NCBI GenBank assembly: GCA_965249135.1
Contig: OZ252220.1
Coordinates: forward strand, 32,001-96,000
Origin: Alphaproteobacteria bacterium
GTDB taxonomy: Bacteria > Pseudomonadota > Alphaproteobacteria > GCA-2746255
DNA: 64,000 nucleotides
Direction of reading: 5' to 3'
In this document: one piece after another, positions 27,738 through 53,695 of the stretch
How positions within the stretch are numbered: position 1 is the first letter of the stretch
Layout of the letters: the number at the start of each line of letters is the position of its first letter
Notes under the pieces: generated by a model
Database searches by the model: none
The model's input: the letters and a program-made list of their open reading frames with translations, nothing else
Told to the model about the DNA's origin: nothing
Made by a program: the position numbers and the translations under genes

Positions 27738-28583
27738 ATGACGGCGATTAGTTCCGTCGAAACCCCATCCGGCAAGGGTACTGGGCACGAAAACTTCCCG
27801 GTTGGGTCCTGGTTGTTGCCGGCGAAGCTGCGGCCACATGTCGCCATTTTTTACGCGTATGCACGGGCGATCGACGACATCGCGGACGACCCGGAGCTTG
27901 CCCCGGAAGACAAGATCGCGCGGCTGGAAGGTTTCGCGCGAGCCATCTCAGGCGCCGAAACGAAGGACCCAGCCTATGGGAAGGCGCATCGTATGCGGGA
28001 GAGTCTCGGCGAGACGCAGATTTCAACCGCCCATTGCATGAATCTGATCGCCGCCTTCAAGCAGGACGCAACAAAACTCCGCTACCGGGACTGGCAAGAG
28101 CTTATGCATTACTGCGACCGCTCCGCTTCTCCGGTGGGACGCTATCTGCTGGACCTCCATGGAGAATCGAGGACCGGTTATGCAGAATCGGATGCGCTTT
28201 GCAACGCACTTCAGGTTTTGAATCATCTCCAGGACTGCAAAGCGGATTACCTTCGCCTCAACCGGGTCTATCTTCCTGAAACGTGGCTGAAAGAGGCGGG
28301 CAGTTCCGTCGAAGAGCTGGCCGACCCTGCCGCGAGTCCCGGTCTTCGCCAGGCGATCGACCATTGCCTCGACGGCGTCGAGGAGCTCCTCGTCTCGGCA
28401 CGCAGGCTGCCGGCCGTGCTTGGGAACCGTTTTCTTGCGATGGAATCCGCGGTCATTGTGGCGATCGCCCAACAACTGACCCACCAGCTGCGCCGCCGGG
28501 ACCCGCTTGCCGAACGCGTCGTTCTGTCAAAGCCGGCGTACGCATCCTGCTTCCTGAAGGGGGTTGCCCGCGTTCTCTTGTGA
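27738..28583 (+). CDS. hpnC: Hydroxysqualene synthase
   Basis: ENFPVGS, DDIAD, NHLQD. Confidence 0.93.
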   Translation: MTAISSVETPSGKGTGHENFPVGSWLLPAKLRPHVAIFYAYARAIDDIADDPELAPEDKIARLEGFARAISGAETKDPAYGKAHRMRESLGETQISTAHCMNLIAAFKQDATKLRYRDWQELMHYCDRSASPVGRYLLDLHGESRTGYAESDALCNALQVLNHLQDCKADYLRLNRVYLPETWLKEAGSSVEELADPAASPGLRQAIDHCLDGVEELLVSARRLPAVLGNRFLAMESAVIVAIAQQLTHQLRRRDPLAERVVLSKPAYASCFLKGVARVLL

Positions 28584-28687
28584 GGCTTCCCTCTTGCCAC
28601 AGCAGCTCTAGCTTCTGTTTCTTTTCGCGTTCTTCGTTTCGGGCTATGCTCGCGCGTTTTTTGAATGGTCCGAACGGATGATCTAGC

Positions 28688-29575
28688 GTGCAAATGCCAT
28701 TCGCTACCTCCGAGGCTTCCCGAGATCCAGAAGCGTTCGCATCGGTCCAGCGGGTCGTAGGCGGCTCCGGCACGTCTTTTTTCTGGGCGATGCGGCTGCT
28801 TTCCCGACGTCGCCGGGAGGGGATATTTGCGATCTATGCGTTCTGTCGCGAAGTCGACGATATTGCCGATGAGCCGGCCCCGAAAGAAAAGAAATTAGCA
28901 GCCCTCGACAAATGGCAAGCGCAGATCGAAAGGCTCTATGGCGGCATCTACGGGAAGGACGAACCCCTTTATCCGACGGCTTGCGCCTTGACGGAGGCGA
29001 TTGCCGAATTCGATCTTCGGAAGGAAGATTTCCTGGCCATCATCGAAGGCATGCAGCTGGATGCAAACGGGCCCATCCTGGCGCCCTCGATGCAGGAACT
29101 GGAACGTTACTGTGACCGCGTGGCGTGTGCCGTCGGGCGACTCTCCGTGCATGCGTTTGGAGTTCCGGGAGGGAAGGGATATGCCGTCGCGGACAAACTT
29201 GGCCAGGCGCTGCAGTTGACGAATATCCTGCGCGACTTGCACGAAGACGAAAGAGAAGGCCGCCTCTATCTGCCGGTGGAGCTTTTGGAGAAGCATGGCA
29301 TTGCCGATCGGACGCCGGAAAAGGTGTTGGGCCATCCGGCGTTGCCGGCGGTCTGCGAGGACCTTGCCCGGATCGCCCGCCGCCGCTTCGAAGAGGCGGA
29401 AATAGCCCTCGCGCCGTGTTCACGTCGCAAGATGCGGCCTGCCGTCGTCATGATGCGGGTCTATTGGAAAATTCTTGAAGCATTGCAGGCGAGGGGATGG
29501 GGGGATCTCGATCGCGCGGTCGGGCTCTCGAAGGCGGGCAAGATGTGGATCGCGCTCCGCTACGGAATACTTTAG
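28688..29575 (+). CDS. hpnD: Presqualene diphosphate synthase
   Basis: SFFWAMR, DDIADE, QLTNILRD. Confidence 0.93.
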   Translation: MQMPFATSEASRDPEAFASVQRVVGGSGTSFFWAMRLLSRRRREGIFAIYAFCREVDDIADEPAPKEKKLAALDKWQAQIERLYGGIYGKDEPLYPTACALTEAIAEFDLRKEDFLAIIEGMQLDANGPILAPSMQELERYCDRVACAVGRLSVHAFGVPGGKGYAVADKLGQALQLTNILRDLHEDEREGRLYLPVELLEKHGIADRTPEKVLGHPALPAVCEDLARIARRRFEEAEIALAPCSRRKMRPAVVMMRVYWKILEALQARGWGDLDRAVGLSKAGKMWIALRYGIL

Positions 29576-29578
29576 GGC

Positions 29579-30829
29579 ATGGGCGTCGTTCACATCGTAG
29601 GCGCTGGTCTGGCGGGGCTTGCCGCGGCCGTTCGCCTTGCAGAGGCGGGGAGACGGGTTGCCCTTTACGAAGCCTCCGATCACGCAGGTGGGCGTTGCCG
29701 TTCCTACGTCGACGCGACGCTTGGGAAGCGGGTCGATAATGGAAACCACTTATTCTTCCGGGGCAATCGGGCGGCGCTTCATTACCTGAGGACGATCGGC
29801 GCGGTCGATCGCTTCATCTGTCCAAGCGAGCCGGCCTTTCCCTTCATCGATCTCACCACGGGCAACCGCTGGGTCGTTCGTCCCTCCGGCCCCGTTCCAT
29901 GGTGGGTCTTCGTACCCTCGCGCCGCATTCCGGGGACGAAACCAAGCGACTATTTGGCGGCGCTTCGGCTTTTCACGGCAAAGCATGACGCCACCGTTGC
30001 CGGAACCTTCCCGGAAGGCGGTCCGCTCTACCGTTATTTTTGGGAGCCGCTCGCCGTCGCCTCGCTAAATACGCCGGCCGAAAAAGGGGCAATACGGCTT
30101 CTTCTTCCGGTCATCCTGCGCATTTTCGGAAAAGGGCGTGAGGCAGCGCGTCCGATGATCGCTAGGGACGGGCTTTCGGAAAGCTTTGTGGATCCGGCGC
30201 TTGACTATATTCAAAAAAACAACGGAGAACTTCATTTCACCCATCGCCTTCGTGCCATCGCGTTTGACGCTGCGCGCGTCTTGGAACTGGATTTCGGCGA
30301 GCGCCGGGTGACCTTTGAGGAAAACGACCAACTGATCCTTGCCTTGCCGCCGGCAAACGCAGGCGATCTCCTTCCCGACCTTTCCGTGCCAAAGGAAACC
30401 GAGCCCATCCTCAACGCCCATTTTGACTTGCCCGAGGCCCCGTCCTGGCTTCATGAAACCCCGTTCATCGGCGTCATTGGCGGACTTGCCCAATGGATCT
30501 TTCTACGCGGCCGAATGGCCTCCGTCACCGTGAGTGCCGCCGAAGGCCATATCGACAAAACACCGGAGGATCTCATTCCAAGGCTATGGGCAGACGTTGC
30601 GCAAGCGCTTCAGATTTCCGAATCATCGCCGCCCCCTTGCCGCATCATTAAGGAGCGCCGGGCGACCTTTCGCCAAACACCTTCCGCGCTTTCACTTCGC
30701 CCCAAAACCCGGACGAAATACGCGAATTTGTTTCTGGCCGGCGATTGGACCGACACTGGCTTGCCTGCTACGATCGAAGGGGCAATATTCTCCGGCAATA
30801 AGGCCGCTCAGGCCGCCATGAAGCGATAG
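29579..30829 (+). CDS. hpnE: Hydroxysqualene dehydroxylase
   Basis: GAGLAG FAD motif, GGRCRS, DNGNHL, GLPATIEGA. Confidence 0.93.
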   Translation: MGVVHIVGAGLAGLAAAVRLAEAGRRVALYEASDHAGGRCRSYVDATLGKRVDNGNHLFFRGNRAALHYLRTIGAVDRFICPSEPAFPFIDLTTGNRWVVRPSGPVPWWVFVPSRRIPGTKPSDYLAALRLFTAKHDATVAGTFPEGGPLYRYFWEPLAVASLNTPAEKGAIRLLLPVILRIFGKGREAARPMIARDGLSESFVDPALDYIQKNNGELHFTHRLRAIAFDAARVLELDFGERRVTFEENDQLILALPPANAGDLLPDLSVPKETEPILNAHFDLPEAPSWLHETPFIGVIGGLAQWIFLRGRMASVTVSAAEGHIDKTPEDLIPRLWADVAQALQISESSPPPCRIIKERRATFRQTPSALSLRPKTRTKYANLFLAGDWTDTGLPATIEGAIFSGNKAAQAAMKR

Positions 30830-30855: not shown

Positions 30856-32814
30856 ATGGCAATCTCCCCAGATTTCGCCCCTGCGAGCGCTGAGCCGGCA
30901 GAGATCGATGCGCTTCTCGATGCGCTCATTGACGAAAGCCGAAGCGACTGCTTTCGTCGGCAAGCCGACGACGGCCATTGGGTTTTCGAGCTTGAAGCCG
31001 ACACGACGATCCCGTCGGAGTATATCCTGTTCGAGCATTTCTTCGACGAGATCGACGACGATCTTGAAAAGAAAATTGCAGTCTACCTTCGACGCCGTCA
31101 ATCGGACCGGCACGATGGCTGGCCGCTTTTCCATGATGGCGATTTTGATATGAGTGCAAGCGTCAAGGCGTATTTCGCACTCAAGATCGTGGGCGATGAC
31201 GTAAACGCACCGCATATGAAGCGCGCCCGCGAGGCAATTCTATCCCGCGGCGGCGCTGCAAAATCGAATGTCTTTACGCGCATCGCGCTGGCGATCTTTG
31301 AACAGGTGCCATGGCGGGCGGTGCCGGTCATGCCAGTCGAGATCAGCTTGCTGCCAAAATGGTTTCCATTTCACCTGGACAAGGTTTCCTATTGGTCGCG
31401 AACGGTGATCGCGCCCCTTCTTATTGTGATGGCAAACCGGCCGAAGGCGAAGAATCCGCGGCGGGTCGATATTCGTGAGCTCTTTGTCACGCCCCCTGAG
31501 GAAGAGAAAAACTACCACGTCAATCCGATGGGATCCTTGCTCGGATCCGTCCTCCTGCGGGTCGATAGCCTGCTGCGCGTTCTTGAGCCCTACTTCCCGA
31601 AGGGGGTCCGCAAGCGTGCAACGGAAAGGGTGCTCGCCTTTACGAAAGAACGGCTCAATGGCGAGGATGGCGTCGGTGGCATTTTTCCGGCAATCGTGAA
31701 CTCGGTCATAGCCTTCGACTGTCTTGGCTACCCGAAGGACCATCCGGACGTGGTGGTTGCAAAGAAAGCAATACGCCGTTTGCTCGTGATCAAAGAGGGA
31801 GAAGCCTATTGCCAGCCATGCTTCTCGCCAGTCTGGGATACGGGACTCATGTCGCTCGCCCTTCAGGAAGAGCCGCAGAGTACGGAACACGATGCCCACC
31901 AGAAGTCGCTCGACTGGTTGGCGAATCGCCAAATTCTCGACGTCGTTGGTGACTGGGCCGCCCAACGGCCCAAGCTGCGGCCCGGTGGCTGGGCCTTTCA
32001 ATATTGGAATGACCATTACCCGGACGTGGACGATACGGCCGTCGTCGCGATGGCAATGCATCGTTTCGACAAGGAACGCTACGGCGAGGCGATCGCCCGC
32101 GCCGCAGAATGGATCGTCGGCATGCAAAGCGCGAATGGTGGATGGGGGGCGTTCGATGCCGAGAACGCGCATTATGGTCTCAATCACATTCCCTTTGCCG
32201 ATCATGGTGCACTCTTGGACCCGCCAACCGCTGACGTGAGCGCGCGATGCCTGGGGTTTCTAGCCCAGATCGGCTATCCGAAGGATCACCCCGTCGTCGC
32301 TCGCGGCTTAACGTTCCTGAAGCGGGAGCAAGAGGAGGACGGTTCGTGGTTCGGCCGCTGGGGCACGAATTACATCTATGGAACCTGGTCGGCCCTTTGT
32401 GCCTTTCAGGCACTGGGCGAAGATCCGGCGGCACCCCACATCCGCAAGGCGGTGGAGGGGCTGAAGGCCCGCCAGCGGGAAGACGGCGGCTGGGGCGAGG
32501 ACGAGGCGACCTACTGGAAAGAGCGCCGCCATAAGGTCAAGGCAAGCACGGCCTCGCAGACGGCTTGGGCGGTGCTGGGCCTGCTGGCGGCCGGCGAGGT
32601 CAGGAGCGAGGCGGTGAGGCGGGGCATCGCCTACCTGCTGGATGCGCCTCGGACCTGCGCGAAATGGCAGGAAGAATGGTACACGGCCGTCGGATTCCCA
32701 CGCGTCTTCTACCTCCGCTATCACGGTTACAGCGCCTATTTTCCGGTTTGGGCGCTGACGCGCTATCGGAATCTCCTCCGCGGCAACGCACCGACCACGC
32801 GGTACGGAATGTGA
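30856..32814 (+). CDS. shc: Squalene-hopene cyclase
   Basis: DVDDTA catalytic motif, QW repeats, GFPRVFYLRY. Confidence 0.97.
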   Translation: MAISPDFAPASAEPAEIDALLDALIDESRSDCFRRQADDGHWVFELEADTTIPSEYILFEHFFDEIDDDLEKKIAVYLRRRQSDRHDGWPLFHDGDFDMSASVKAYFALKIVGDDVNAPHMKRAREAILSRGGAAKSNVFTRIALAIFEQVPWRAVPVMPVEISLLPKWFPFHLDKVSYWSRTVIAPLLIVMANRPKAKNPRRVDIRELFVTPPEEEKNYHVNPMGSLLGSVLLRVDSLLRVLEPYFPKGVRKRATERVLAFTKERLNGEDGVGGIFPAIVNSVIAFDCLGYPKDHPDVVVAKKAIRRLLVIKEGEAYCQPCFSPVWDTGLMSLALQEEPQSTEHDAHQKSLDWLANRQILDVVGDWAAQRPKLRPGGWAFQYWNDHYPDVDDTAVVAMAMHRFDKERYGEAIARAAEWIVGMQSANGGWGAFDAENAHYGLNHIPFADHGALLDPPTADVSARCLGFLAQIGYPKDHPVVARGLTFLKREQEEDGSWFGRWGTNYIYGTWSALCAFQALGEDPAAPHIRKAVEGLKARQREDGGWGEDEATYWKERRHKVKASTASQTAWAVLGLLAAGEVRSEAVRRGIAYLLDAPRTCAKWQEEWYTAVGFPRVFYLRYHGYSAYFPVWALTRYRNLLRGNAPTTRYGM

Positions 32815-33509
32815 CGCGGCTTGGATTCGTCACCGGCCTTCGCGGGGAAGCAGCCATCATCGAGGCGGCCTCCAGGAGCCTGCCGGAGGCGATACGGCCG
32901 CTCCTTTACTGCGGGGGTGCACATACGGACCGGGCCCAGACCGGTGCCCTGCGTCTGGTGGAAGCGGGCGCCGGCGCATTGGTAAGTTTTGGCATTGCAG
33001 GTGGCTTGGCTCCGGGCCTTGTTTCGGGAAGCCTGATCCTTGCCTCCACCATTCAGGTTGCGGGCGAGCCATCGCTCGGTGTCGATCTCGAGTGGCGGGA
33101 CCGGCTTTGTGAGCGCATAGGCGCCGCCATCGAACCGCAACTCAGCGAAATGGTGGGAAGCCATGTGGTGGTTCAAACCACCGATGACAAAGCCCGCCTT
33201 TTTGGCGAAACCCCGGGCCTTGCCGTCGATATGGAAAGCCATACCGTGGCCAGGGTAGCGCGCGAACGCGCCTTGCCCTTTTTGGTAGTTCGCGCCATCG
33301 CGGACACGGCCGCCATGCCGATCCCGAACGCCGCGCTTGCAGGCGTCGGGCCAGGCGGCGAAACACGCGCCTTTGCCGTGCTTAAGCAGGCCGCCTTCGC
33401 GCCATGGGAGTGGCCGGCGCTCTTGCGTCTTGGGGGCGCGCACCAAAAGGCATTGGGCGTGCTCCGGCGCACCGTGCGCCTCGCCGGGGCCAACCTTGCC
33501 TACGAATAG
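32811..33509 (+). CDS. hpnG: Hopanoid-associated nucleosidase/phosphorylase
   Basis: GTG start overlapping the shc stop; SFGIAGGL, VDMES, VRAIAD. Confidence 0.85.
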   Translation: MTRLGFVTGLRGEAAIIEAASRSLPEAIRPLLYCGGAHTDRAQTGALRLVEAGAGALVSFGIAGGLAPGLVSGSLILASTIQVAGEPSLGVDLEWRDRLCERIGAAIEPQLSEMVGSHVVVQTTDDKARLFGETPGLAVDMESHTVARVARERALPFLVVRAIADTAAMPIPNAALAGVGPGGETRAFAVLKQAAFAPWEWPALLRLGGAHQKALGVLRRTVRLAGANLAYE

Positions 33510-33531: not shown

Positions 33532-34656
33532 TTAAGCAGCGTCGCTCGTGTGGTCTTCTTCGAGAAACTTCTCCACGTGCTTCTCGAAGACGTATTCTGC
33601 CTTGCGTTGATTCGAAAGGGCGATCTCCGGGGCCATCGGACCGTCCGTGCGGACACCGGAAAGCGCAACTTTTAGCGCCCTCAACGGGTGCGAGACCGTA
33701 TCGTTCACGGCCGTCGGCTCGTAACCGCAATGCACCATGCAGTTTGCGCATTTTTCATAATTGCCGGTGCCGTATTTCTCCCATGCCGTTTCTTCCATGA
33801 GTTCCTTCCAGGTTCGTGCGTACCCCTCGCCCAGAAGGTAACAGGGGCGTTGCCAGCCAAAGATGTTGCGCGTCGGATTTCCCCAGGGGGTGCAATGGTA
33901 GGATTGATTGCCGGCGAGGAAATCAAGGTACAGGCTGGATTGCGAAAAACGCCATTTCTTTCCTTTTCCATGCCGAAAAATGTCACGGAAAAGCTGGCGC
34001 GTTTTCTGGCGGCTTAAGAAATGTTCCTGATCTGGTGCCCGTTCGTAGGCATAACCAGGCGAAATCGTGATTCCATCGACACCTAGATTTTCCATTACGT
34101 AAGAAAAGAAATCTGCCATCTCCTTTGCATTCGTGCCGTCAAACAGGGTGCAATTTACATTTACCCGGAAGCCCTTTTCGGCTGCTAAGCGAATTGCCCG
34201 CAGGGCCCGGTCGAAGACGCCCTCCTGGCAAACGGCCTTGTCGTGGGTTTTGCGGTCACCGTCCAGGTGAACGGAGAAAGTGAGGTACAGGCTCGGCTTG
34301 AAAAGGTGCAGCTTCTTTTCCAGCAGAAGCGCGTTCGTGCACAGATAAACGAACTTCTTTCGGGCCACGATCCCCTCGACGATTTCTTTGATTTCCTTGT
34401 GCAGAAGGGGTTCGCCACCCGGAATGGAGACCACTGGCGCGCCGCATTCATCGACGGCGTCGAGGCATTCCTCGACGCTCAAGCGCTTGTTCAGGATTTC
34501 GTCTGGGTAATCGATCTTCCCGCAGCCGGCGCAAGCCAGATTGCAGCGGAACAATGGCTCCAGCATGAGGACGAGCGGATAACGTTTTGCGCCCCCTAAG
34601 CGTTGCTTCAGAACGTAAGCACCGACGCGAACTTGTTGAATAAGCGGTACCGCCAT
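33532..34656 (-). CDS. hpnH: Adenosylhopane synthase (radical SAM)
   Basis: [30 protein letters not shown]. Confidence 0.96.
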
Positions 34657-34677: not shown

Positions 34678-35646
34678 TTAGGCGGTCATCGGCTGCTGGG
34701 TGTCCAACAACTCCGGCGGAAGCTTGAATTGAACGTGTTCCTCTATTCCTATTAGCGCCTTGACTTCCAACTCGCCGAAATCGCCAAGTCGCTGAATCAC
34801 TTCCTGCACAAGTTGTTCCGGTGCCGAGGCGCCAGCCGTAATGCCAATCGTGCCGATCCCGTGCAGCCATTCCGGCTCCAGGCCACGCGAATCCTCGATC
34901 AAATAACTCGGCAGTCCCATCTCGAGACCGATCTCGCGCAGCCGGTTCGAATTCGAACTGTTCGGAGCGCCGACGACGAGCAGCAGATCGACCTCCTTCG
35001 CGAGGTGACGCACGGATTCCTGGCGATTTTGGGTCGCGTAACAAATGTCCTTCACGTCAGGACCCTGGATGTTGGGGAAGCGCTTCATCAACGCCTCAAT
35101 CACATCCCGGGTATCGTCAACGCTCAGGGTCGTCTGAGTAATGTAGGCAAGCTTGTTTGAATCCCGTACCCGAAGTCGATCAACGTCGGCGGGCTCCGAG
35201 ATGAGAAGAACGCCTCCGGGGATTTGCCCGCGCGTCCCTTCGACTTCCGGATGGCCTTCGTGGCCGATCAGGATGATTTCATAGCCTCGCTCGGCGTAGC
35301 GTTGCCCTTCCTTGTGCACCTTTGAGACGAGCGGACACGTTGCATCGATTACCGGCAAACCGCGATCTTGCGCATCTGCAAGCACTTTTCTGGAAACGCC
35401 ATGGGCGCTGAAGACGGTGACCGCACCGTCCGGCACCTCATCGAGCTCATGGACGAATCGTGCCCCCTTCGCGCGCAGGGCTTCCACCACATGTTTGTTA
35501 TGGACAATTTCATGGCGCACATAAACGGGTGGACCATATTTCTCAAGCGCGCGGTTGACGATTTCGATGGCCCGCTCGACGCCGGCACAAAAACCGCGCG
35601 GTTGAGCAAGGAGGACCCGAATTTTACGTTGGCTTGTCGAGGTCAT
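34678..35646 (-). CDS. ispH: 4-hydroxy-3-methylbut-2-enyl diphosphate reductase
   Basis: [31 protein letters not shown]. Confidence 0.96.
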
Positions 35647-40774: not shown

Positions 40775-40785
40775 GCTGAGGAACC

Positions 40786-42977: not shown

Positions 42978-42980
42978 AGT

Positions 42981-44855: not shown

Positions 44856-44878
44856 CACGTCCGATCGGAAGGTGGGGT

Positions 44879-46018: not shown

Positions 46019-47670
46019 AGAAAGTTGCGTGCTTTCGCGAGATCGAAAGGATCGTCGATATCGAGCCAGTGACCAGTAATGTACTGCACTTGGATCTTAT
46101 GACCTGACTCGACCAGCCGGTTAAAGAGATCCGGCATGTCCGCCGTCTGCAGGCTGCCATCCGTGGACATCACTTCAATCTCATCCCGGACAATCTTTGC
46201 ACCATTCGGGCTGAGTAGGACAAGTCCCACCCATTCACCATGAATTTCATCGGTTGGGATTTCCGTTCCGACACGAAGCAATCGCGCCGTGTCGCCCTCA
46301 AGGTAATCGGGGTGGAAGGGGTTGTCGCATTGAACGAAATCGCGTGTACGCTTCTGCGTTTGACGTTCCCGCCAAAGTGCGTCGGCGGCGACAGTAATAT
46401 CGGCATCCGACCCCTGCAGCTGTTCAAGAATGTAGCTTCGGTAAAGGATATCGCCGTAGGTAATGAGACAAGGCCCATCCTTTAACTGATCGATTGCGCA
46501 AGCAAGCGAGGCGACCTCGCCGGTCTCGGCAAAGTTGGCGTTCGTACGCATATCGATCGCCGGTATGTCGATGGCTTCCTTCCGATAGCCGCCGACGACA
46601 GTAACGTTGCGAATGCCACTCTCGCGTATCGTTGCAATCATCGTACGCAGCAGAGGTTTGCCGCGCACATCGATCATGCATTTCGGGCGGTCTTCGGTAA
46701 GCGGGCCAAGAGAATCGCCCCGCGTTGCCGCAAGGATGATCGCACGTGCCTTTTCACCTCTTTGCGGCAGATAACGCCGTTCCGCCTCTGCCAGCTCGGT
46801 TTGTCCTGCAAGTTCGAAGACGTCCTTCACCGACGCAACGGTATCTTCAACGTTGACTAGACTTTGACTCTCATAGATCCGTTTGCATACGTCCCGCATT
46901 CCGGCAATGGCGGCACGCAGATTGTGATTTGCCCAAATGACCGTTGATATCCCGGCATTCTCAAACTGCCCCGTCGGCGTCGCATAGTACATCGTCGGCA
47001 CAATGATAACCGAACATGTGTTTCCCCATTCCTTCATGAAGGCGAAGATTTCATCCGCGGTTTTCTCTTTGGAGTGTACGAGAAGTGCATCGGCGCCGGC
47101 TTGATGATAAGCCTCGGCGCGCCGCAGCGCTTCATCCAATCCCCAACCTGCGATGAAAGCCTCGATCCGCGCGATGACGCAGAAGTCAGAGTTGAGTTGA
47201 CTGTCTTTGCCTGCCTTGATCTTGCCACAGAACTCATCAATGTCTGCCAGGGGCTGGCCTTCCCCGAGGAAGGAATTCGTTTTCGGAAACTGCTTGTCTT
47301 CGATGCAGACACCGGCAACGTTTCGCTGGCAAAGCTTCGTCACCAGCCGGCGAACGTTGTTGAAATTCCCATAGCCCGTATCCCCATCCACCAGGATCGG
47401 GATCGATGTCGCATCCGACATGAATTCGAGGATTTCGAGGACCTGGGTCCAGGAGGCCTCGTTGTTGTCGCGTACGCCAAGGGCCGCTGAGATGGAGAGA
47501 CCGGACGCCCAAATGCCACGAAAACCGGCTTCCTCGACAATCTTCGCAGAAAGCCCGTTATGGGCTTCCATCAGAAAGGAGAGTTTCGGCGAAAGCAACT
47601 CCCCACGAAGGAGCGCTGCCTTCGTAGGCTCTGAGGATGCTTCCGGCGCGCGTTTCGGAAGAACGGTCAT
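46015..47670 (-). CDS. pepM: Phosphoenolpyruvate mutase fused to a C-terminal nucleotidyltransferase (AepX/PepM)
   Basis: Diagnostic [10 protein letters not shown] (EDK-X5-NS); C-terminal [15 protein letters not shown]-transferase domain. Confidence 0.96.
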
Positions 47671-47834
47671 CGGCCCAGAATTTTCATGGATGGGACCCGT
47701 AACATTTACGTCATATCTCTTGGATTTTCAAATGCCTGTGTTGACTTGCCACGAAGCTCAATGACGGTCGAGCTTGCACGCCTGCCCTACCGGTGCGATA
47801 TCCGGTCGGAAAACGTAGGACGAGGGTATCCCCT

Positions 47835-48572
47835 ATGAAAGTCGTCATGCTTGCCGCCGGGGTAGGCTCAAGGCTCGGCGAAGAGGGCAGGCTCCCAAAG
47901 GTGCTCCTGGAATTCGGGGGTCAAACGCTGCTCGAGCGTCATATCAAGATCTTAAGCGCGGCGGGCCTCGAATCCCTTATCCTTGGGGTAGGCTTCGAGG
48001 CGGAGCGAATCGCGGCAGCGGTCGAAAAGCTGCATGCCGAGGACTTCGTCCGTCTCATCGGGAATCCGGACTACCGAAAGGGAAGCATCACGACCCTTTG
48101 GGCGCTTAAGGATGCGATCCCTGCCAACGAGCCGATCCTGCTGATGGACGCGGACGTCCTTTACGACCCGCGGCTGATCGGGCGGCTACTGGCAACCTCG
48201 CATGCCAACTGCTTTCTTCTCGACCGCGATGTCGAGGAGGGAGAGGAACCCGTCAAACTTGGCGTACGAGGTGCAGAGCTTGTCGATTTCAATCGGCGCA
48301 TCACATTGCCCCATGACTTCTATGGCGAATCCGTCGGTTTTTTCCGTTTCTCGCCTGAGATTACGGAGAAGGTGATGGCGCATGCGGAACGCCGTTTGCA
48401 GGCAGGAGAGACGGAGCTTTGGTATGAAGAAGCGATTCGCGATGTGCTTCTTTCCGAACCTATCGGCACCTTTGGCTTTGAAGACGTGACCGGCCTTCCC
48501 TGGATCGAGATTGATTTTCCGGAAGATATTCGACGCGCGGACGAAGAGATTTTGCCAAGGCTATTGGTCTGA
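47835..48572 (+). CDS. Phosphocholine/phosphonate cytidylyltransferase (LicC/PntC-like)
   Basis: LAAGVGSRL..PK, MDAD, WIEIDFPED. Confidence 0.88.
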   Translation: MKVVMLAAGVGSRLGEEGRLPKVLLEFGGQTLLERHIKILSAAGLESLILGVGFEAERIAAAVEKLHAEDFVRLIGNPDYRKGSITTLWALKDAIPANEPILLMDADVLYDPRLIGRLLATSHANCFLLDRDVEEGEEPVKLGVRGAELVDFNRRITLPHDFYGESVGFFRFSPEITEKVMAHAERRLQAGETELWYEEAIRDVLLSEPIGTFGFEDVTGLPWIEIDFPEDIRRADEEILPRLLV

Positions 48573-49340
48573 ATTTCCGTTCCGGAAGAGATAGTTTTCT
48601 GGCCCCTGATAGCCATCAATACACATAGACGTGCCGGACTGAAAATTCATTTGATAGGTTTCGTACCCAACAGCGTGCAGAAAATCGAAGACATCTTTCA
48701 CGTGATGGCCCATGCGTGCCAGGTAGTCTTCGACGACCTCTAGATAAAGCGTGGGACGGAAACGACGGATGGTCTCGGCGCCCCCTTGCAGAACCAGGAA
48801 TTCGGCACCCTCGACATCGCATTTCACGAAATCGAGACGAGAAAACCCATTTTCAGTTGCGTAGCTGTCAAGGGTCGCCGTTTGTACGCGCTCCGTGACG
48901 TAATCACGCGCTTGCTCTGCTCCAAAATGTCCCAGCCCGATACCCAGATGGCCGGACTCCTTTACCGGCAAATAAAAATCGATTTCTCCGGTCTTATCGG
49001 AAAGGGCGAATTCGTTGATGCGCACGTTGTTAAGCTTACCCACGACCTCTTTCAGGATCGAGAGGTTATAGGGGGAAGGCTCGAAACAGTGCACGGAGAC
49101 ATTCCCGTGATGGAGCCGGGCAAACTCCTTCGCATAGCCCCCTATATGCGCACCAATGTCGAGGATAACCCCCTGTTCGGGGATGAGCGTGCCCAGGCAT
49201 TTGACGACGTGACGGTCGCGCGCCTTGTATTTTGCCTTGAGCTTATGGAGGAAGCGCTCAAAGCGTTGCGCAGGCGCATTGTAGACCTCAGTTGGGTCGA
49301 GTTTCTGACCTTTCCGTTCCAAAATGGCGCGTCCATCCAA
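48561..49340 (-). CDS. FkbM-family methyltransferase
   Basis: LDIGAHIG, FEP, KCDVEGAE; start uncertain because the ORF-track N-terminus reads through the tRNA fragment. Confidence 0.85.
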   Translation of the reverse strand: MDGRAILERKGQKLDPTEVYNAPAQRFERFLHKLKAKYKARDRHVVKCLGTLIPEQGVILDIGAHIGGYAKEFARLHHGNVSVHCFEPSPYNLSILKEVVGKLNNVRINEFALSDKTGEIDFYLPVKESGHLGIGLGHFGAEQARDYVTERVQTATLDSYATENGFSRLDFVKCDVEGAEFLVLQGGAETIRRFRPTLYLEVVEDYLARMGHHVKDVFDFLHAVGYETYQMNFQSGTSMCIDGYQGPENYLFRNGNSDQ

Positions 49341-49356
49341 TCCAGGTGGCACGAAG

Positions 49357-49401
49357 TGGTGGGCGCTGCTGGGTTTGAACCAGCGACCCCTGCCGTGTGA
49401 A
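49357..49401 (-). repeat. Duplicated 3' part of tRNA-Val (att site)
   Basis: 45 bp identical to 53792-53836. Confidence 0.96.
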
Positions 49402-49657
49402 AAAAGCCTAACCCGCAAAAAATAGCATCGTTCAAGGTTTTTTGAGAAACGTCTTTCGTCGTTTAGACATGTCTAAAACAAGAACACCGATCAAAAATGG
49501 TTCAAATGAACCACCGCACGGTGCTTTTTTCAGCATCCCAATGCTCTCGACTTTGACCAATAGACTCTAATTACTTGTGCGGTTTGTACGTGAACTGATG
49601 TCTATTTAGCGAGGCGCGAGATTCGGCCGTTCCGGAAAGCCAAACGCTTACCGCCGT

Positions 49658-50785
49658 TTATCGACCGGAGTCTTCAGGCGGTGACGGCCGCACATTCGAC
49701 GTTCCCCATTCGTAACCGAGGGTCAGAAGATAGGCCGTATCGGTACCGGTCTTGCCTCGGACCGGAGAATTGTCCCAATCGAAATTCGCCTGCAGGGTGG
49801 CAAGAAAACCGTGGACGAGACGGAAGCGAAGGCCGGTACGGGTCCGGATGATGAGGTCGCTTGTATTCTCCAATCCCAAAAGCCCCTCCTGGGAGTGGAA
49901 GGCCTCGGCGCGATTGCGAAACAAGGCTTCCTGGTAGTTGATCGACCAGCGTGCAGCCGGATAATCTTTATCCTTCTGTGTACTAAAACCTTCCGTCACA
50001 TAACTGAATCCGAATTCGGCGGAAAGATCGCGTTCCTCGGTGTCGAAAAACTGATAGCCGGCGCCCCCGCCTGTCGCCGTGCGACGATTGAGGTCCTCAA
50101 ACTTATCGCGCTCGAAGCTCGCATTAAGGAAAGCAAACCACTGCTTCGTAAGGAAGTAATCGTACTTGGCAGAGACGAACGTATTATCATCGGTTTCTCT
50201 GCCGTCGTTCTTTTCCAGGTTGTATTCGAAGACAAGCTTCGCCCGGTGACGTTGCTTGCGCGCATTCACTTCCCCATCCACGTGATAGTTGTCTTCGTCA
50301 TTATTGCCTCTCTCGGCATCGAAGCCGAGATTGAGGCGGCCCCGCAATTCGAGTTTCCCTGCTTCCGAAACCGCAGGCTGAGCCGCCGCCTTGGGGGGCG
50401 CGGCCCGGGTCGCGATCTGCCGGGTAGCGGTCTGAATATCCGTGAAGCGAAATTCCCAGGCGCGCGTGAAGTCGGGGGTGACGAGCTGAAGCATGCTCCC
50501 ATAGCGGGGCGCGATCGTGCCCACGAGCCGCGTGCCGCTCGGAAACGTCACGTGCAAGGGCCAGTCCGCCTGGATGGCGGCAACCTCCTGGCGGCGAATG
50601 CGAATCCTGCCCGCGTAAGTCGTTTGCAGGGCGACTTCCTTCGGGTCGATCCCTTCGATCGTCCCTCTAAGGCGGTCGCCGGATTTCAGGAAAACCTCAT
50701 CTGCGGCGGCGGCGCCGGCGAAAACGAGGAAAAGAGCCAGGAGAACCAGACAGATCGGCCCTCGGAGATTGCCTCCCCTCAGCAC
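49658..50785 (-). CDS. DUF481-like outer-membrane beta-barrel protein
   Basis: Signal peptide, ADEVFLKSGDRLRG N-domain, amphipathic beta strands (GGGAGYQFF, LTLGYEW). Confidence 0.8.
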   Translation of the reverse strand: MLRGGNLRGPICLVLLALFLVFAGAAAADEVFLKSGDRLRGTIEGIDPKEVALQTTYAGRIRIRRQEVAAIQADWPLHVTFPSGTRLVGTIAPRYGSMLQLVTPDFTRAWEFRFTDIQTATRQIATRAAPPKAAAQPAVSEAGKLELRGRLNLGFDAERGNNDEDNYHVDGEVNARKQRHRAKLVFEYNLEKNDGRETDDNTFVSAKYDYFLTKQWFAFLNASFERDKFEDLNRRTATGGGAGYQFFDTEERDLSAEFGFSYVTEGFSTQKDKDYPAARWSINYQEALFRNRAEAFHSQEGLLGLENTSDLIIRTRTGLRFRLVHGFLATLQANFDWDNSPVRGKTGTDTAYLLTLGYEWGTSNVRPSPPEDSGR

Positions 50786-51294: not shown

Positions 51295-52134
51295 GTGGAG
51301 AAGAATAGGTCGATGATCGCTCATGATCGCGCAACCACGGCGCTCCTGCTCGCTGCGGGTACAGGAAGTCGTTTGCGCCCATTGACCAAGAACGCCCCGA
51401 AGTGTCTCACTGAAGTCGGTGGCATCCCAATCCTCGAACGGCTGGTCAACAACCTGCGTGAACACGGAATCAAGAGGCTGGTGGTGGTTATTGGACACCT
51501 GGGCGACCATATCCGCGATTTCCTGAACGATAAGGCGGGCGATATGCAGGTCGACTGCATCCTCAGCCCCAAGTACCAGACAACCAACAACATCTATTCC
51601 CTCTGGCTGGCCCGGGAACGAATCCGGGAACCGTTCCTGCTGGTGGAAAGCGACCTGATCTTCGATGCCTTGATGTTGGAGAACATGCTCCATCCGGACA
51701 AGATCGCGATTTCCCGCATCCGGCCCTGGATGAACGGGACAACGGTGACAGTTGGCCCCGGGAGGCGGGTCAGGGCCTTCAATGTCGGCGGCGGTGCGGA
51801 GGATGACGTACCGCGTTACAAGACGGTGAATGTCTACAGCCTTTCCGCGCCGACCTGGAACAAGACCGTGACAAGACTGAACCGCTACATCTCGAATGGT
51901 AGGGTCGGTGAGTATTACGAAGCCGTTTTCGCTGAAATGGTTGCCGACGGCACGCTTTCCTTCGAAGTGGCCTTCTTCGATCCAGACCGCTGGTATGAAA
52001 TCGACACCATGGCGGACCTCAACGAAGCGGAAAGGAGGTTCGGTGGGATGTCCCACCCCTACGTCGGGCCAGATGTCTGCCGTCTTCAAACCGCCGGGAG
52101 AGGCTCGTTGACATCGGTTGCCGCGAATGACTGA
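51295..52134 (+). CDS. Phosphocholine cytidylyltransferase-like NTP transferase
   Basis: LLAAGTGSRLRPLT..PKCL, TNNIYSL, ESD, WYEIDT. Confidence 0.9.
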   Translation: MEKNRSMIAHDRATTALLLAAGTGSRLRPLTKNAPKCLTEVGGIPILERLVNNLREHGIKRLVVVIGHLGDHIRDFLNDKAGDMQVDCILSPKYQTTNNIYSLWLARERIREPFLLVESDLIFDALMLENMLHPDKIAISRIRPWMNGTTVTVGPGRRVRAFNVGGGAEDDVPRYKTVNVYSLSAPTWNKTVTRLNRYISNGRVGEYYEAVFAEMVADGTLSFEVAFFDPDRWYEIDTMADLNEAERRFGGMSHPYVGPDVCRLQTAGRGSLTSVAAND

Positions 52135-52939
52135 GATCAACTACGCAACGGCCAACCGGTATTGGGAAGGGGCCACGCCTTCGATCCTCGGGCCGTACAT
52201 GATGGACGGGTTCGGCTTTCCCGTGAGCGCGGGAGGGTTCCGTTTCCGGGCGGAATCGCGGATCGTCCGGCGACTGGTCCACAGCGTGAAACGGGACGGC
52301 ACGGTCCTCGATCTCGGAAGCGGCGTCGGGTTCTGGGCCGGGGACTTCGCTGCTCGCTTCTCCCAGGTAGTCGCGGTCGAGGGTAGCGGGACGCTGTACC
52401 AGGCTTTGGAGAGAAGGTGCGCTCCACACCCTAACGTCCGTCCCGTCCACGACAACGTCATGTCGTTCGAGCCTGACGGTCGCTATGACCTGATCTTTCT
52501 CGGCGGCCTGCTCATGTACCTCAACGAAAAGGACGTGATTGCCCTGCTGCGGAGACTGGTTCCGTTCCTCGAACCGGGCGGAATGATCCTGTGCCGCGAG
52601 TCCACCGTCCGCGGCGAGACCGTAGCACGTCGGGGCGACTACCAGGTCGTCTATCGTTCCGTGCTGGACTACGGACGTATCTTCGGGCAATGCGGATTGA
52701 GCGTCCGGCACATCGAGAGAAACGAGCCCTATGTTCTCATGCAGATGGGGTGCGAACTGGTCAAGATATGGAAGGAAACGGTGTCTGAGCGATTTCAGGT
52801 CCTTCGGGGCGTTGGCCATTTGACGTATTTCATGTTGCGCCTGGGAAACCCCTGGATCACGCGCGTTCCCAAGGTGCTGGGTATTCCGTTTCCGAAGCTG
52901 GAAAACCACTTCTTCGTGCTCGAAGCGGAGCGTCCTTAA
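52127..52939 (+). CDS. Class I SAM-dependent methyltransferase (phospho-base N-methyltransferase-like)
   Basis: VLDLGSGVG motif I; YDLIF..LLMYL and GGMILCRES. Confidence 0.82.
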   Translation: MTEINYATANRYWEGATPSILGPYMMDGFGFPVSAGGFRFRAESRIVRRLVHSVKRDGTVLDLGSGVGFWAGDFAARFSQVVAVEGSGTLYQALERRCAPHPNVRPVHDNVMSFEPDGRYDLIFLGGLLMYLNEKDVIALLRRLVPFLEPGGMILCRESTVRGETVARRGDYQVVYRSVLDYGRIFGQCGLSVRHIERNEPYVLMQMGCELVKIWKETVSERFQVLRGVGHLTYFMLRLGNPWITRVPKVLGIPFPKLENHFFVLEAERP

Positions 52940-53008
52940 TATTTATGGGGCGCAGTCGTTTCCATCGGCTCAGGCCCGCTCCAACTCACGCTCATCTCGG
53001 GGGCAACG

Positions 53009-53695
53009 ATGGAAAATCCACCGGGAAATTTCGTTTACCGGAATTTGGCCAACGTGACGTCGATTCTCGGCGCGCTGCCTCTCGTAATTCTCTTCCTGGA
53101 TGACGGCTACCGATACCTGATCCCGCTGATCCTGTTTAACAACGTCATGGACGATCTAGACGGCATTCTGGCTGCTAAACTGAACATCAGAAGTCGGTTC
53201 GGCGGCGACCTCGACAACATATGCGACGCGGTCGCTCACGTCATTTTAGCCATGGCAGTCGGCGCGCATTTCGGCGGCATCCTCATCGCCGCGAGTGTGA
53301 TCGCAGCCGGCTCGATCATTCTTCGCGTTACCTCCCGGCTCGATCCCGATACAGCCACGAGGACGGGCTCTCCGACGAACGAACTCATGCGCCACATGCT
53401 GTTCGTCCTCCTGCTGGCCGGGCAGTTCGACTTCGAGCCCGCATATATCCTGATCCCGGTATTCCTTCTGCATTCGGTGTCGATGCTCATGCCGTTAAGG
53501 ATGCCCACCCTCATCCGGAGCCGAGCCAAGTCGGCGGCCACGGTCGGTATGGTGAATGCGGCGCTGGTGGTGGCTTGGCTCATGCCTCCCGCCACGCCGG
53601 TCGTCGCGGCCGCCTTCATCGGCACCTACCTGTATGCCTTCGGCGTGGGGGCCGTTCGTTGGTCGAAGGAACGGGGCGGCGAGACACGTCCATAA
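53009..53695 (+). CDS. CDP-alcohol phosphatidyltransferase family protein (Pcs/PssA-like)
   Basis: ANVTS, DDLDGILAAK..GGDLDNICD, multiple TM segments. Confidence 0.88.
   Translation: MENPPGNFVYRNLANVTSILGALPLVILFLDDGYRYLIPLILFNNVMDDLDGILAAKLNIRSRFGGDLDNICDAVAHVILAMAVGAHFGGILIAASVIAAGSIILRVTSRLDPDTATRTGSPTNELMRHMLFVLLLAGQFDFEPAYILIPVFLLHSVSMLMPLRMPTLIRSRAKSAATVGMVNAALVVAWLMPPATPVVAAAFIGTYLYAFGVGAVRWSKERGGETRP

Follow-up and report, generated by a model that had tools for sequence, protein, structure and literature searches.

Hopanoids are sterol-like lipids of bacteria, and the classical lipid acceptor of CDP-alcohol phosphotransferases is diacylglycerol. Linkage of hopanoid and phosphonate genes is mentioned in passing in the available parts of four papers (PMC8776678, PMC8942020, PMC7285500, PMC5987411), and 'phosphonate-terpene' clusters are likewise noted only briefly in papers. 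The portion of PMC8942020 that describes this cluster type classes it as 'Group 1 phosphonolipid', and the locus examined here shares the domain set given there for the 'Burkholderiales_CDP-OH / Group 1 phosphonolipid' clusters, themselves uncharacterised: PntC occurs both fused to Ppm and in a second copy, alongside a 2-oxoglutarate oxygenase and genes of phospholipid type. Literature searches returned neither a characterised product of such clusters nor a phosphorus-containing hopanoid, in agreement with an earlier note on this DNA that knew of no characterised phosphono-hopanoid; the linkage itself is already in print. In the available text of a survey of hopanoids in alphaproteobacteria published in 2025 (PMC12583986), the term 'phosphon' does not occur. 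Hopanoid and C-P head-group genes are neighbours in this DNA and also in many distantly related bacteria, an adjacency that points either to a hopanoid with a phosphonate group, as yet undescribed, or to a lipid co-exported with hopanoids.

In the window, by which we mean the whole stretch of 64,000 nucleotides analysed, a full 2-aminoethylphosphonate (AEP) pathway adjoins hopanoid genes (region 27723-53695). Families were assigned with Pfam and NCBIfam models, and scores in bits were compared with curated cut-offs; every family that the earlier note had named was found in its place. The forward strand carries hpnC for squalene synthase (27723..28583; TIGR03464, 276.5 versus 250.45), hpnD for presqualene diphosphate synthase (28688..29575; TIGR03465, 305.8 versus 278.6), hpnE for hydroxysqualene dehydroxylase (29579..30829; TIGR03467, 388.6 versus 283) and shc for squalene-hopene cyclase (30856..32814; TIGR01507, 786.7 versus 431), the only copy in the source genome by a single tblastn match. 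The hopanoid-associated phosphorylase gene hpnG follows (32811..33509, +), with a probable GTG start at 32811 that overlaps the shc stop; its score on TIGR03468, taken on an over-long ORF, is slightly below the cut-off (174.4 versus 187.1). On the reverse strand lie hpnH for the radical SAM enzyme adenosylhopane synthase (33532..34656; TIGR03470, 571.8 versus 225) and ispH for isoprenoid precursor supply (34678..35733; NF002188, 489.7 versus 420). Membership of these families shows the predicted products of HpnCDE, Shc, HpnH and HpnG to be squalene, hopene and the C35 side chain. Next is hpnA, which encodes a hopanoid-associated SDR/epimerase-family protein of unassigned role (35803..36912, +; TIGR03466, 493.6 versus 367.65).

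Genes for lipid transport complete the hopanoid block. The RND hopanoid exporter gene hpnN (36909..39518, -; TIGR03480, 941.2 versus 751.85) is present once in the source genome (a single match), and its product falls below the stricter NF052374 model (709 versus 1100). It is followed by hpnM for an MlaC-like periplasmic lipid carrier (39639..40307, +; TIGR03481, 186.7 versus 160.1), a DUF2141 gene (40337..40774, +; PF09912, 108.6 bits) that also adjoins hpnM in two congeneric loci (L036, L038), and a gene for an MlaA-like lipoprotein (40844..41644, -; PF04333, 231.5 bits), the sole MlaA homologue found by tblastn in the source genome (a single match) and a protein named 'HpnS' elsewhere (PMC12324291). 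The absence of hpnI/J, reported earlier for the window, extends to the whole 2.12-Mb genome (HpnI, 35.6 versus 310 bits; HpnJ, 26.4 versus 577.6), and thus no other composite-hopanoid route was found there.

The AEP block begins with a PhyH-family Fe/2-oxoglutarate dioxygenase (41899..42690, +; PF05721, 75 bits), whose gene recurs beside a cytidylyltransferase gene or pepM in many loci. Its score of 168 against a cut-off of 500 on the nearest NCBIfam model indicates that it is no equivalog of the PhnY*-type methylphosphonate hydroxylase. Beyond the two intact CDP-alcohol phosphotransferases noted before, both confirmed as full-length CDP-OH_P_transf ORFs, we found a truncated third of clade B (42726..42953, +; PF01066, 27.9 bits; 96 bits on the clade model) that ends right after DGALAR; the congener G004 has an intact paralogue in this slot (L036:14965-15834). 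The first intact enzyme, CDPOH1 (42981..43580, -; PF01066, 48 bits; subclade A2), retains the complete motif DRADGELAR...G...D...D and scores 258 bits on the clade model, versus at most 34 for three housekeeping paralogues. CDPOH1 thereby belongs to the hopanoid/AEP-associated transferase clade, and we propose that it may be the AEP transferase.

Production of 2-AEP is assigned, by family membership, to three predicted activities: PEP mutase (PepM), phosphonopyruvate decarboxylase and an AEP-pyruvate transaminase of the PhnW/AEPT type. The transaminase (43731..44855, +; NF010006, 521.4 versus 296; TIGR03301, 466.7 versus 360.8) is followed by ppd (44879..46018, -; TIGR03297, 432.7 versus 312.5), which in ORF coordinates shares 4 nt at its start with the end of pepM. 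PepM (46015..47670, -; TIGR02320, 391.4 versus 319.55) carries a Ppm-specific motif of 10 residues at residue 124 and is fused to a PntC-type cytidylyltransferase domain (NTP_transf_3, PF12804, residues 310-430). Together with two further NTP_transf_3 proteins this makes three cytidylyltransferase domains, the number counted previously. One of the two is NT2, a stand-alone LicC/PntC-like head-group cytidylyltransferase (47793..48572, +; PF12804, 55.4 bits). Downstream are genes for an FkbM-family methyltransferase (48561..49418, -; PF05050, 83.9 bits), which adjoins NT2 in three congeneric loci as well (L037, L038, L039), and for a DUF481 outer-membrane barrel protein (49658..50785, -; PF04338, 174 bits), found in G001 and not seen in the congener G004.

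In considering whether the two gene sets belong together, we counted full-length fused PepM (E <= 1e-150) and matches to the transferase-clade model (E <= 1e-25) in 401 evenly sampled genomes of the source's class, related genomes being non-independent samples in these counts. All 37 genomes with fused PepM, from 21 families, carry shc, as do all 47 with a clade match (46/46 when the unpublished G244 is left out). The background is 123/401 overall and 76/354 among genomes lacking a clade match. In a phylum sample, shc was present in 5/5 tested clade-positive genomes. Among the genomes searched, the clade of CDPOH1 is confined to those that bear shc. Outside the class, shc also occurs in nine of ten genomes whose cytidylyltransferase-pepM loci have no hpn genes nearby.

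The earlier note had named unlinked clusters in relatives as the outcome that would speak against it. Instead, shc and pepM are separated by 14-15 kb in 3/3 assessable congeners and by 6.8-17 kb in another 13 genomes from 11 other families. AEP genes are interleaved among hpn genes in most linked genomes, and ten genomes of eight other families share a contiguous, co-directional hpnN-NT2-CDPOH-hpnA arrangement. The gene junctions are tight; at one locus (L005) the match to hpnN shares 22 nt with that to NT2, and pepM comes after hpnM. A betaproteobacterial MAG holds the full supercluster, a gammaproteobacterial MAG is also linked, and at two cyanobacterial (Nostocales) loci hpnH and hpnA are no more than 10 kb away. 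The hopanoid-AEP adjacency exceeds chance, since it is found again in other families, classes and phyla. That the two clusters are neighbours of unrelated function would fit their arrangement in the source genus as two separate blocks instead of an interleaved operon, and also four genomes in which pepM and shc are far apart on one contig; this conserved linkage, the interleaving, the strict co-occurrence and the gene fusions described below contradict it, and we regard it as very improbable.

The fusions join the transferase to the exporter. One locus (L021) has a single 1097-aa ORF in which a CDPOH 56% identical to CDPOH1 is fused to HpnN, and six 90%-identity clusters in the protein database hold both domains, with the transferase N-terminal in five and C-terminal in one. 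On the clade model the transferase parts of these clusters reach 183-245 bits, and they retain an intact catalytic motif; the HpnN parts reach 806-992 bits, the cut-off being 752. Linkage in relatives, interleaving and these fusions strongly support a functional coupling of the AEP module, as predicted from its genes, to hopanoid biosynthesis or export. Position tells a similar story: a clade member lies 2.9-10.8 kb from shc in 16 of the 19 non-congeneric genomes with both on one contig, and in four of those 16 (G053, G354, G312, G173) pepM is found at a distance of 0.89 Mb or on a different large contig. In G403 and G404 a cytidylyltransferase gene sits within the hpn cluster, accompanied in G404 by two transferase genes, and neither genome has a Ppm motif, only EDQ...KRCG-type paralogues. 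The transferase follows the hpn genes rather than pepM.

These data bear on a Kennedy-type route, in which CMP-AEP and diacylglycerol would yield an AEP- or hydroxyAEP-glycerolipid that is tied to hopanoids by no covalent link, being exported through HpnN, HpnM and the MlaA-like protein or needed beside hopanoids in the outer membrane. The usual acceptor of this enzyme family and the likeness to the Group 1 clusters favour it, as do acyl-lipid genes (LpxL-like acyltransferase, PagL-like proteins, patatin) in some related clusters. So does the transferase tree, a quick search only, in which CDPOH1's subclade A2 tracks pepM and the hpnN-hpnA operon subclades are A1 and B, of which the source genome has B truncated and A1 absent. 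A clade member is far from shc in G021 and G356, and in G021 the AEP module is 2 Mb from shc. Such a route leaves unexplained the restriction of the clade to shc genomes, its position within the hpnN-hpnA operon, its proximity to shc where pepM is distant or not found and, unless HpnN also carries glycerolipids, the fusions to this single-copy exporter in both orientations. We consider it the main rival, rather unlikely on balance.

The locus is best explained as a single candidate unit that would serve both the synthesis and the export of a phosphonate head group linked to hopanoids. Part of the AEP would be converted to 1-hydroxy-AEP by the PhyH dioxygenase, which we infer to hydroxylate C1, and CMP-(hydroxy)AEP would be made by the PepM-fused and stand-alone PntC-type cytidylyltransferases. 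CDPOH1 would then attach the phosphonyl head group to a hydroxyl of a membrane lipid, most likely in the side chain of bacteriohopanetetrol (BHT), giving BHT-AEP or BHT-hydroxyAEP (calculated [M+H]+ 654.486 and 670.481). The product would leave the inner membrane via HpnN and reach the outer membrane via HpnM and the MlaA-like lipoprotein. Transfer to a bacteriohopanepolyol hydroxyl followed by this export is a reading that we hold with middling confidence. Of the two products that the earlier note had offered, a phosphono-hopanoid or a co-exported phosphonolipid, the evidence leans to the covalent phosphono-hopanoid; what all the comparative evidence shows is coupling to hopanoid genes and HpnN, not a covalent bond.

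AEP might instead decorate another envelope acceptor (lipid A, a glycan, ceramide or a small soluble alcohol), the hopanoid neighbours reflecting shared outer-membrane remodelling. No CDP-alcohol phosphotransferase is known to decorate glycans or lipid A, and the HpnN fusions argue for a cargo lipid. NT2 has 579 relatives in genome contigs, partnered by CDP-OH transferases in hpn/pepM loci and by LicD elsewhere, and 14 of the 80 best loci pair its family with a LicD-type glycan transferase, which speaks for such an acceptor; however, none of those 14 holds a hopanoid gene, and the window ORFs that were scanned included no LicD. Further points in favour of such an acceptor are that a few related clusters carry genes resembling those for PagL or lipid A acyltransferases and that 1-hydroxy-AEP is known on a sphingolipid from Bacteriovorax stolpii (cited in the available part of PMC8942020). 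Overall we judge this explanation improbable. Ceramide is an unlikely acceptor since no serine palmitoyltransferase was found in the source genome (models 176-256 versus cut-offs of 500-670), where ALA synthase and BioF are the sole alpha-oxoamine synthases.

The block closes with a species-specific three-gene module on the forward strand. Its opening gene encodes the third cytidylyltransferase, NT3 (51295..52134; PF12804 and PF00483), and overlaps by 17 nt a gene for a phosphoethanolamine N-methyltransferase-like protein (52118..52939). The best PDB matches of this methyltransferase are the plant phosphoethanolamine N-methyltransferases PMT2 (E 1e-23) and PMT1 (5e-22), and it may N-methylate a head group; it was found in 0/5 congeners, and two Hyphomicrobiales MAG loci encode homologues with 73% identity to it. 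The third gene encodes CDPOH2, a divergent CDP-alcohol phosphotransferase (53009..53695; PF01066, 30.4 bits) in which Ala replaces the motif Arg (DDLDGILAAK...). CDPOH2 is not a member of the hopanoid clade, whose model gives it 24 bits, and it groups in the tree only with two other loci (L073, L074). The trio may be an add-on gained by lateral acquisition, and its product would likely be a lipid with an N-methylated head group of the phosphocholine or N-methyl-AEP type. The PMT-like methyltransferase and the Arg to Ala change in CDPOH2 are features added here to the earlier description, as are the PhyH dioxygenase, the FkbM methyltransferase, the DUF481 barrel and the truncated CDP-OH gene.

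The uninterrupted run of hopanoid and 2-aminoethylphosphonate (AEP) lipid genes, about 26 kb long, that the earlier note had described was recovered in full when the open reading frames of the window were listed and scanned with Pfam and NCBIfam models. Its hopanoid block extends from the start of hpnC at 27723 to the end of a gene for an MlaA-like lipoprotein at 41644, and contains hpnC, hpnD, hpnE, shc, hpnG, hpnH, ispH, hpnA, hpnN, hpnM, a DUF2141 gene and the MlaA-like gene. A squalene-hopene cyclase, the HpnCDE route to squalene and the HpnH/HpnG side-chain extension enzymes are all present. Every named Hpn protein passes its NCBIfam cut-off except HpnG (174.4 versus 187.1), whose identity is backed by synteny. 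HpnN exceeds the cut-off of TIGR03480 (941 versus 752) and falls below that of the stricter model NF052374 (709 versus 1100). HpnN is the inner-membrane hopanoid transporter, for which a preprint proposes HpnM and an MlaA-like protein, 'HpnS', as periplasmic partners (PMC12324291); counterparts of both are encoded in the window. The MlaA-like gene (40844-41644) is the sole MlaA homologue found in the genome, which also has another MlaC-like gene, at G000:C1:1208692-1209360; the general Mla system may therefore use the lipoprotein of the cluster as well.

Ordinary genes flank the region. Just upstream of hpnC (23394-27609) are genes for a GH15 glucoamylase/trehalase-like enzyme, a trehalose phosphatase, an inositol-monophosphatase-family protein and a GST, and downstream are genes for a HAD phosphatase, glmU and glmS. 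None of the four upstream genes occurs in the clusters of other families, and the stretch fetched from the congener G004 includes a fragment of the GST gene alone, the other three falling beyond it.

The phosphonate block spans 41899 to 53695 and encodes, in order, a PhyH-family dioxygenase, a truncated CDP-alcohol phosphotransferase remnant, an intact CDP-alcohol phosphotransferase (CDPOH1, 42981-43580, minus strand), an AEP transaminase, phosphonopyruvate decarboxylase (Ppd), a PEP mutase (PepM, or Ppm) fusion and a stand-alone cytidylyltransferase (NT2, 47793-48572, plus strand), followed by an FkbM methyltransferase, a DUF481 barrel, and a trio made up of a third cytidylyltransferase (NT3), a methyltransferase and a second CDP-alcohol phosphotransferase (CDPOH2). 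The PEP mutase scores 391 against a cut-off of 320 for TIGR02320 and carries at residue 124 the Ppm-specific motif, defined as EDKxxxxxNS (PMC6697681). A PF12804 cytidylyltransferase domain of the kind expected for PntC, which is fused to or near Ppm, occupies residues 310-430 of the same protein, and NT2 lies 123 bp from pepM. Both Ppd (TIGR03297, 432.7 versus 312.5) and the transaminase (NF010006, 521 versus 296) adjoin Ppm. A role of these genes in AEP catabolism was rejected: PepM and Ppd act in biosynthesis, and the HAD protein close by reaches only 43 against 220 on the phosphonatase model.

CDPOH1 has the full DxxDGxxAR(x8)G(x3)D(x3)D catalytic motif, and in CDPOH2 the arginine of the motif is replaced by alanine. 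The remnant (42726-42953, plus strand) comprises about 75 codons and ends just past DGxxAR, before the G...D...D portion; in G004 an intact paralogue (L036:14965-15834) fills its slot. The dioxygenase belongs to the PF05721 superfamily. It was not accepted as an equivalent of the PhnY*-type phosphonate alpha-hydroxylase (NF052437, 168 versus 500), and a PDB sequence search with it returned generic PhyH enzymes alone (E >= 2e-5). The DUF481 barrel holds a position comparable to that of PagL-domain outer-membrane proteins, which recur in related hopanoid/AEP clusters (loci L029, L035 and L089), as does an LpxL-like acyltransferase (L013).

The genome assembly is one contig of 2.12 Mb, 98.75% complete, of which the window takes up bases 32001-96000. 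The genome belongs to a GTDB order of one family, one genus and six species, and its named relatives are alphaproteobacterial MAGs. The genome has one copy each of shc, hpnH, hpnN and the MlaA homologue, and three housekeeping CDP-alcohol phosphotransferases outside the window. The lack of hpnI and hpnJ, which the earlier note had reported for the window, extends to the whole genome. Ceramide was set aside as an acceptor because no serine palmitoyltransferase was found in the genome, where the models for this enzyme score 176-256 against 500-670. Of six PF00155 proteins, two are alpha-oxoamine synthases, identified as ALA synthase (671 versus 339) and BioF (433 versus 426).

Unlinked clusters in relatives had been named beforehand as an argument against joining the two pathways; linkage is kept in the congeners and in 11 other families. 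The distance from shc to pepM is 14-15 kb in all three congeneric genomes that have both genes on one contig, the remaining two congener assemblies being fragmented. Of 401 genomes sampled evenly from the class, 51 have a PepM match at E <= 1e-40, and 37 of these, from 21 families, have a full-length match to the fused PepM (E <= 1e-150). All 37 carry shc, which is present in 123 of the 401 genomes overall; the seven PepM-positive genomes that lack shc have divergent or unfused types of PepM. In 17 non-congeneric genomes a single contig carries both pepM and shc; the distance between them is 6.8-17 kb in 13 (11 families) and 0.9-3.7 Mb in the other four. Outside the class, shc is located elsewhere in the genome in nine of ten cases in which a locus with NT2 and pepM has no hpn genes nearby. 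The tenth genome, G411, has no shc, and no clade transferase (see below) was detected at its locus. These data confirm the observation, and the coupling of hopanoid and AEP genes is real and widespread.

To compare operon anatomy, the window proteins were mapped onto 34 stretches of DNA taken from 25 genomes. In other families the genes are typically arranged as hpnCDE-shc-hpnG, hpnH-ispH, often a gene for an HpnL-like protein, a transferase, then hpnA-transferase-NT2-hpnN as one co-directional run, followed by hpnM, pepM-ppd and the transaminase. The run hpnA-transferase-NT2-hpnN is contiguous in 10 genomes of eight families, with gene junctions that abut or overlap, and in other families phosphonate genes are therefore interleaved with hopanoid genes. 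The two-block layout of the window is a rearrangement peculiar to its genus. The HpnL-like gene, whose product has an LPG_synthase_TM domain, is absent from the window; in L005, L010, L022 and L029 it lies beside a clade-B transferase or between NT2 and hpnN.

The transferases of these operons form a distinct group. In a tree of 70 CDP-alcohol phosphotransferases (quick IQ-TREE run, SH-aLRT support), a superclade associated with hopanoid and AEP genes stands apart from the genome's housekeeping enzymes and from CDPOH2. The transferase sequences came from a second-round profile HMM that, owing to a fusion protein of locus L021 in its seed set, also drew HpnN reading frames; a length filter (<330 aa) removed 37 of 104 rows, including this fusion. 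Members of subclade A1 are located in the NT2-hpnA operon; those of subclade B, which contains the intact G004 paralogue of the window's remnant, lie beside hpnA, ispH or hpnL; and those of subclade A2, which contains CDPOH1 as well as cyanobacterial, Nitrospinota, beta- and gammaproteobacterial members, lie beside pepM or the transaminase. A superclade profile built from 45 rows gives 258 bits for CDPOH1, 96-100 for the remnant, at most 34 for the housekeeping enzymes and 24 for CDPOH2.

Matches to this profile occur in 47 of the 401 class genomes, and shc is present in every one (46 of 46 without the unpublished G244), compared with 76 of the 354 genomes that have no match. In the phylum sample there were four strong matches besides the window's genome, and shc was found in all five clade-positive genomes tested. 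A clade gene and shc share a contig in 19 genomes outside the genus, and in 16 of these they are separated by 2.9-10.8 kb. In four of these 16 (G053, G354, G312 and G173) the transferase is near shc although pepM is 0.89 Mb distant or located on a different large contig. The clade gene of G307 lies 1.4 Mb from shc yet adjoins the genome's only hpnN. The PepM search gave no match in nine clade-positive genomes of the class sample. Weaker matches (94-127 bits) were seen in twelve genomes of one small-genome family (f224) in the phylum sample and, in the class sample, at G369:C66, G243:C2 and G073:C8; they are open frames of 340-443 aa in small genomes, possibly encoding a fused relative of the transferase, and the one such genome that was checked has shc.

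Relatives of NT2 were sought in a collection of species-representative genomes with an alignment of 15 homologues. The best 80 of at least 579 loci come from Alpha-, Beta- and Gammaproteobacteria, Nostocales, other cyanobacteria and Nitrospinota. Among these best 80, pepM is present in 39, a clade transferase in at least 30, and one or more hopanoid genes within the stretch in 34; a betaproteobacterial MAG has the full supercluster (L060), and hpnH and hpnA lie within 10 kb in two Nostocales loci, L069 and L080. Another 14 of the 80, namely L046, L047, L057, L058, L110, L111 and eight more, have a LicD-family gene instead (confirmed by Pfam in six) and no hopanoid gene; in such pairs the activating enzyme family serves to decorate glycans. 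As NT2 relatives pair with LicD or with a clade transferase, NT2 is a putative head-group activator of the LicC/PntC type, predicted to serve a LicD-type transferase in some loci and a CDP-alcohol transferase in hopanoid/pepM loci. Activation of a phosphoribosyl-hopane intermediate by NT2 was also considered, and dropped because the family pairs with LicD where hopanoid genes are absent. The substrate of the family may vary, its members also being found beside LicD without pepM or in genomes that are free of pepM.

Two of the pepM-free genomes, G403 (locus L045) and G404 (L049), have NT2 inside a hopanoid cluster, and G404 also has two transferases. Their PepM-superfamily genes encode EDQ...KRCG only in place of the Ppm motif, and neither genome encodes a protein with that motif. 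The clade thus persists in hpn loci where pepM is distant or Ppm is absent, and the pair of transferase and cytidylyltransferase is associated with hopanoid genes more closely than with the synthesis of phosphonates. The L045 cluster also includes a gene for a patatin-like lipase, and genes for a three-domain TPP enzyme and a class-III aminotransferase lie upstream of hpnM in L049.

A physical link between transferase and transporter was found at L021:16516-19809 in genome G267, where a single ORF of 1097 aa joins a CDPOH1-like domain to HpnN. When the N-terminal 215 residues of this ORF were searched against proteins of 603-1920 aa, eight proteins matched, in which six 90%-identity clusters (P0001-P0004, P0006 and P0008) have both PF01066 and PF03176. 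The catalytic motif is intact in all six, with clade profile scores of 183-245 bits, and on TIGR03480, which has a cut-off of 752, the HpnN portions reach 806-992 bits. The transferase domain is at the N-terminal end of the protein in five clusters and at the C-terminal end in the sixth, an arrangement that suggests at least two independent fusion events. In MprF, an enzyme that modifies a lipid is fused to the flippase for that lipid. The CDPOH-HpnN fusions may be analogous, with a head-group transferase joined to the protein that transports the lipid so modified, although the protein families are unrelated. Of the other matches, P0005 (689 aa) combines a clade transferase domain with a class-III aminotransferase, and P0007 (617 aa) combines one with a PAS/histidine kinase.

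Judged by family membership, the window encodes the predicted capacity for synthesis of hopene and the C35 side chain, for AEP synthesis and for head-group cytidylylation, together with a putatively competent CDP-alcohol phosphotransferase and an export set. The donor would be CMP-(hydroxy)AEP and the acceptor the lipid carried by HpnN. A bacteriohopanetetrol (BHT) hydroxyl is the most likely acceptor, a choice in which our confidence is about even; it is favoured because co-occurrence with shc is strict, the genes are embedded in hopanoid operons, the transferase stays beside shc where pepM is missing, fusions to HpnN occur, and no other BHT-tailoring route is found in the genome. The main competitor is a diacylglycerol phosphonolipid that is co-exported with hopanoids. 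Such a product agrees with the reactions classically ascribed to this enzyme family and with the label 'Group 1 phosphonolipid' used in the literature (PMC8942020), but it accounts less well for the hopanoid dependence, and we regard it as rather unlikely. For the window's own genome, the BHT reading is weakened by the A2 type of its one intact clade enzyme, which tracks pepM, and by the broken B paralogue.

The window's domain content matches that of the 'Group 1 phosphonolipid' or 'Burkholderiales_CDP-OH' ppm families (Yu et al., 2013, as cited in Li and Horsman, 2022, PMC8942020). Common to both are a Ppm-PntC fusion, a second PntC, Ppd, AEP transaminase, a 2-oxoglutarate/Fe oxygenase, predicted in Group 1 to yield a 1-hydroxy phosphonate, and CDP-alcohol-type phospholipid genes. 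In its account of this group, PMC8942020 describes the product as uncharacterised even in the reference organisms; the Group 1 papers treat the set as a glycerolipid pathway, with a 'possible phosphonoterpene' raised for Nitrosococcus only. Here and in many relatives, by contrast, the set is embedded in or abuts a hopanoid cluster, and the transferase can be fused to HpnN. Co-location of pepM with shc or squalene synthase genes, as in the window, has been recorded as antiSMASH 'phosphonate-terpene' hybrids in Roseomonas/Belnapia (PMC8776678), Nitrosococcus oceani (PMC7285500) and Pandoraea (PMC5987411), with speculation about a terpene-phosphonate; for Roseomonas, the remark on linked shc and pepM mentions 'an undiscovered terpene-phosphonate' (PMC8776678). 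In the relevant passages these are one-line remarks, made without operon anatomy, a transferase clade, a co-occurrence test, pepM-free variants or fusions. A table in a 2025 preprint likewise places PEP phosphomutase among SHC-correlated domains without comment there (PMC12324291). The present analysis adds four new elements to a linkage that had already been remarked in print: the interleaving of the operon, the restriction of the transferase clade to genomes with shc, the variants free of pepM, and the HpnN fusions.

The proposed chemistry has parallels in two other systems. In HpnI/HpnJ/HpnK tailoring, which yields glucosaminyl-BHT and BHT cyclitol ether, membrane-associated enzymes of the hpn cluster likewise add a C35 head group and HpnN exports the product; here the proposed step is phosphonyl transfer from a CMP-activated donor rather than glycosyl transfer, and HpnI and HpnJ are absent. 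Kennedy-type choline and ethanolamine phosphotransferases and LicC/LicD, considered with the biochemically characterised PntC (PMC6697681), follow the same logic, in which a cytidylyltransferase activates and a transferase delivers. CDPOH1 shares the canonical DxxDGxxAR...G...D...D motif with the Kennedy-type enzymes, but its clade lies well apart from the three housekeeping enzymes of the genome (258 versus <=34 bits), and a triterpenoid polyol would take the place of diacylglycerol or a glycan as acceptor.

Geohopane biomarkers derive from hopanoids, which are major membrane lipids, and phosphonates make up a large and poorly sourced share of marine and soil organic phosphorus. Full-text literature searches found no characterised phosphorus-bearing hopanoid. 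Tentatively, and with somewhat less than even confidence, we propose an unseen lipid class, hopanoid phosphonates, in which bacteriohopanepolyols would be esterified with 2-AEP or 1-hydroxy-AEP by a dedicated CDP-alcohol phosphotransferase clade that is sometimes fused to HpnN; in pepM-free genomes the head group would be a phosphate ester. The pathway would extend across Alpha-, Beta- and Gammaproteobacteria, Nostocales and Nitrospinota, and would link the record of hopanoid biomarkers with the pool of phosphonates in the environment. If this is correct, CDP-alcohol phosphotransferases have a new function, and routine bacteriohopanepolyol analyses may have missed a hopanoid bearing both N and P. 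If the product is instead a co-exported glycerophosphonolipid, HpnN has a second cargo, which would also be new. According to PMC8942020, about half of bacterial pepM clusters are thought to decorate the cell surface, and the commonest lipid-type cluster has no known product. That cluster gains a concrete, testable partner in the hopanoid pathway and its exporter, and the data supply exact masses, cultured carriers and a diagnostic gene, that of the hopanoid-associated CDP-alcohol phosphotransferase clade. The calculated [M+H]+ values are 654.486 for BHT-AEP and 670.481 for BHT-hydroxyAEP, and the cultured carriers include Caldovatus aquaticus (L094), Nostoc linckia NIES-25 (L080), Nostocales HT-58-2 (L069) and the environmental Roseomonas type strains of PMC8776678.

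The tight trio at the downstream end of the phosphonate block (51295-53695) comprises NT3 (51295-52134, plus strand), a phosphoethanolamine-N-methyltransferase-like methyltransferase and the divergent CDPOH2 (53009-53695, plus strand). It is found in none of the five congeners. The best PDB matches of the methyltransferase are plant PMT2 and PMT1 (E 1e-23 and 5e-22), which extend over about 160 residues of one methyltransferase domain. Counterparts that are 67-73% identical occur in two loci of Hyphomicrobiales MAGs (L073 and L074), and the trio is probably a laterally acquired mini Kennedy-type module for a lipid with an N-methylated head group.
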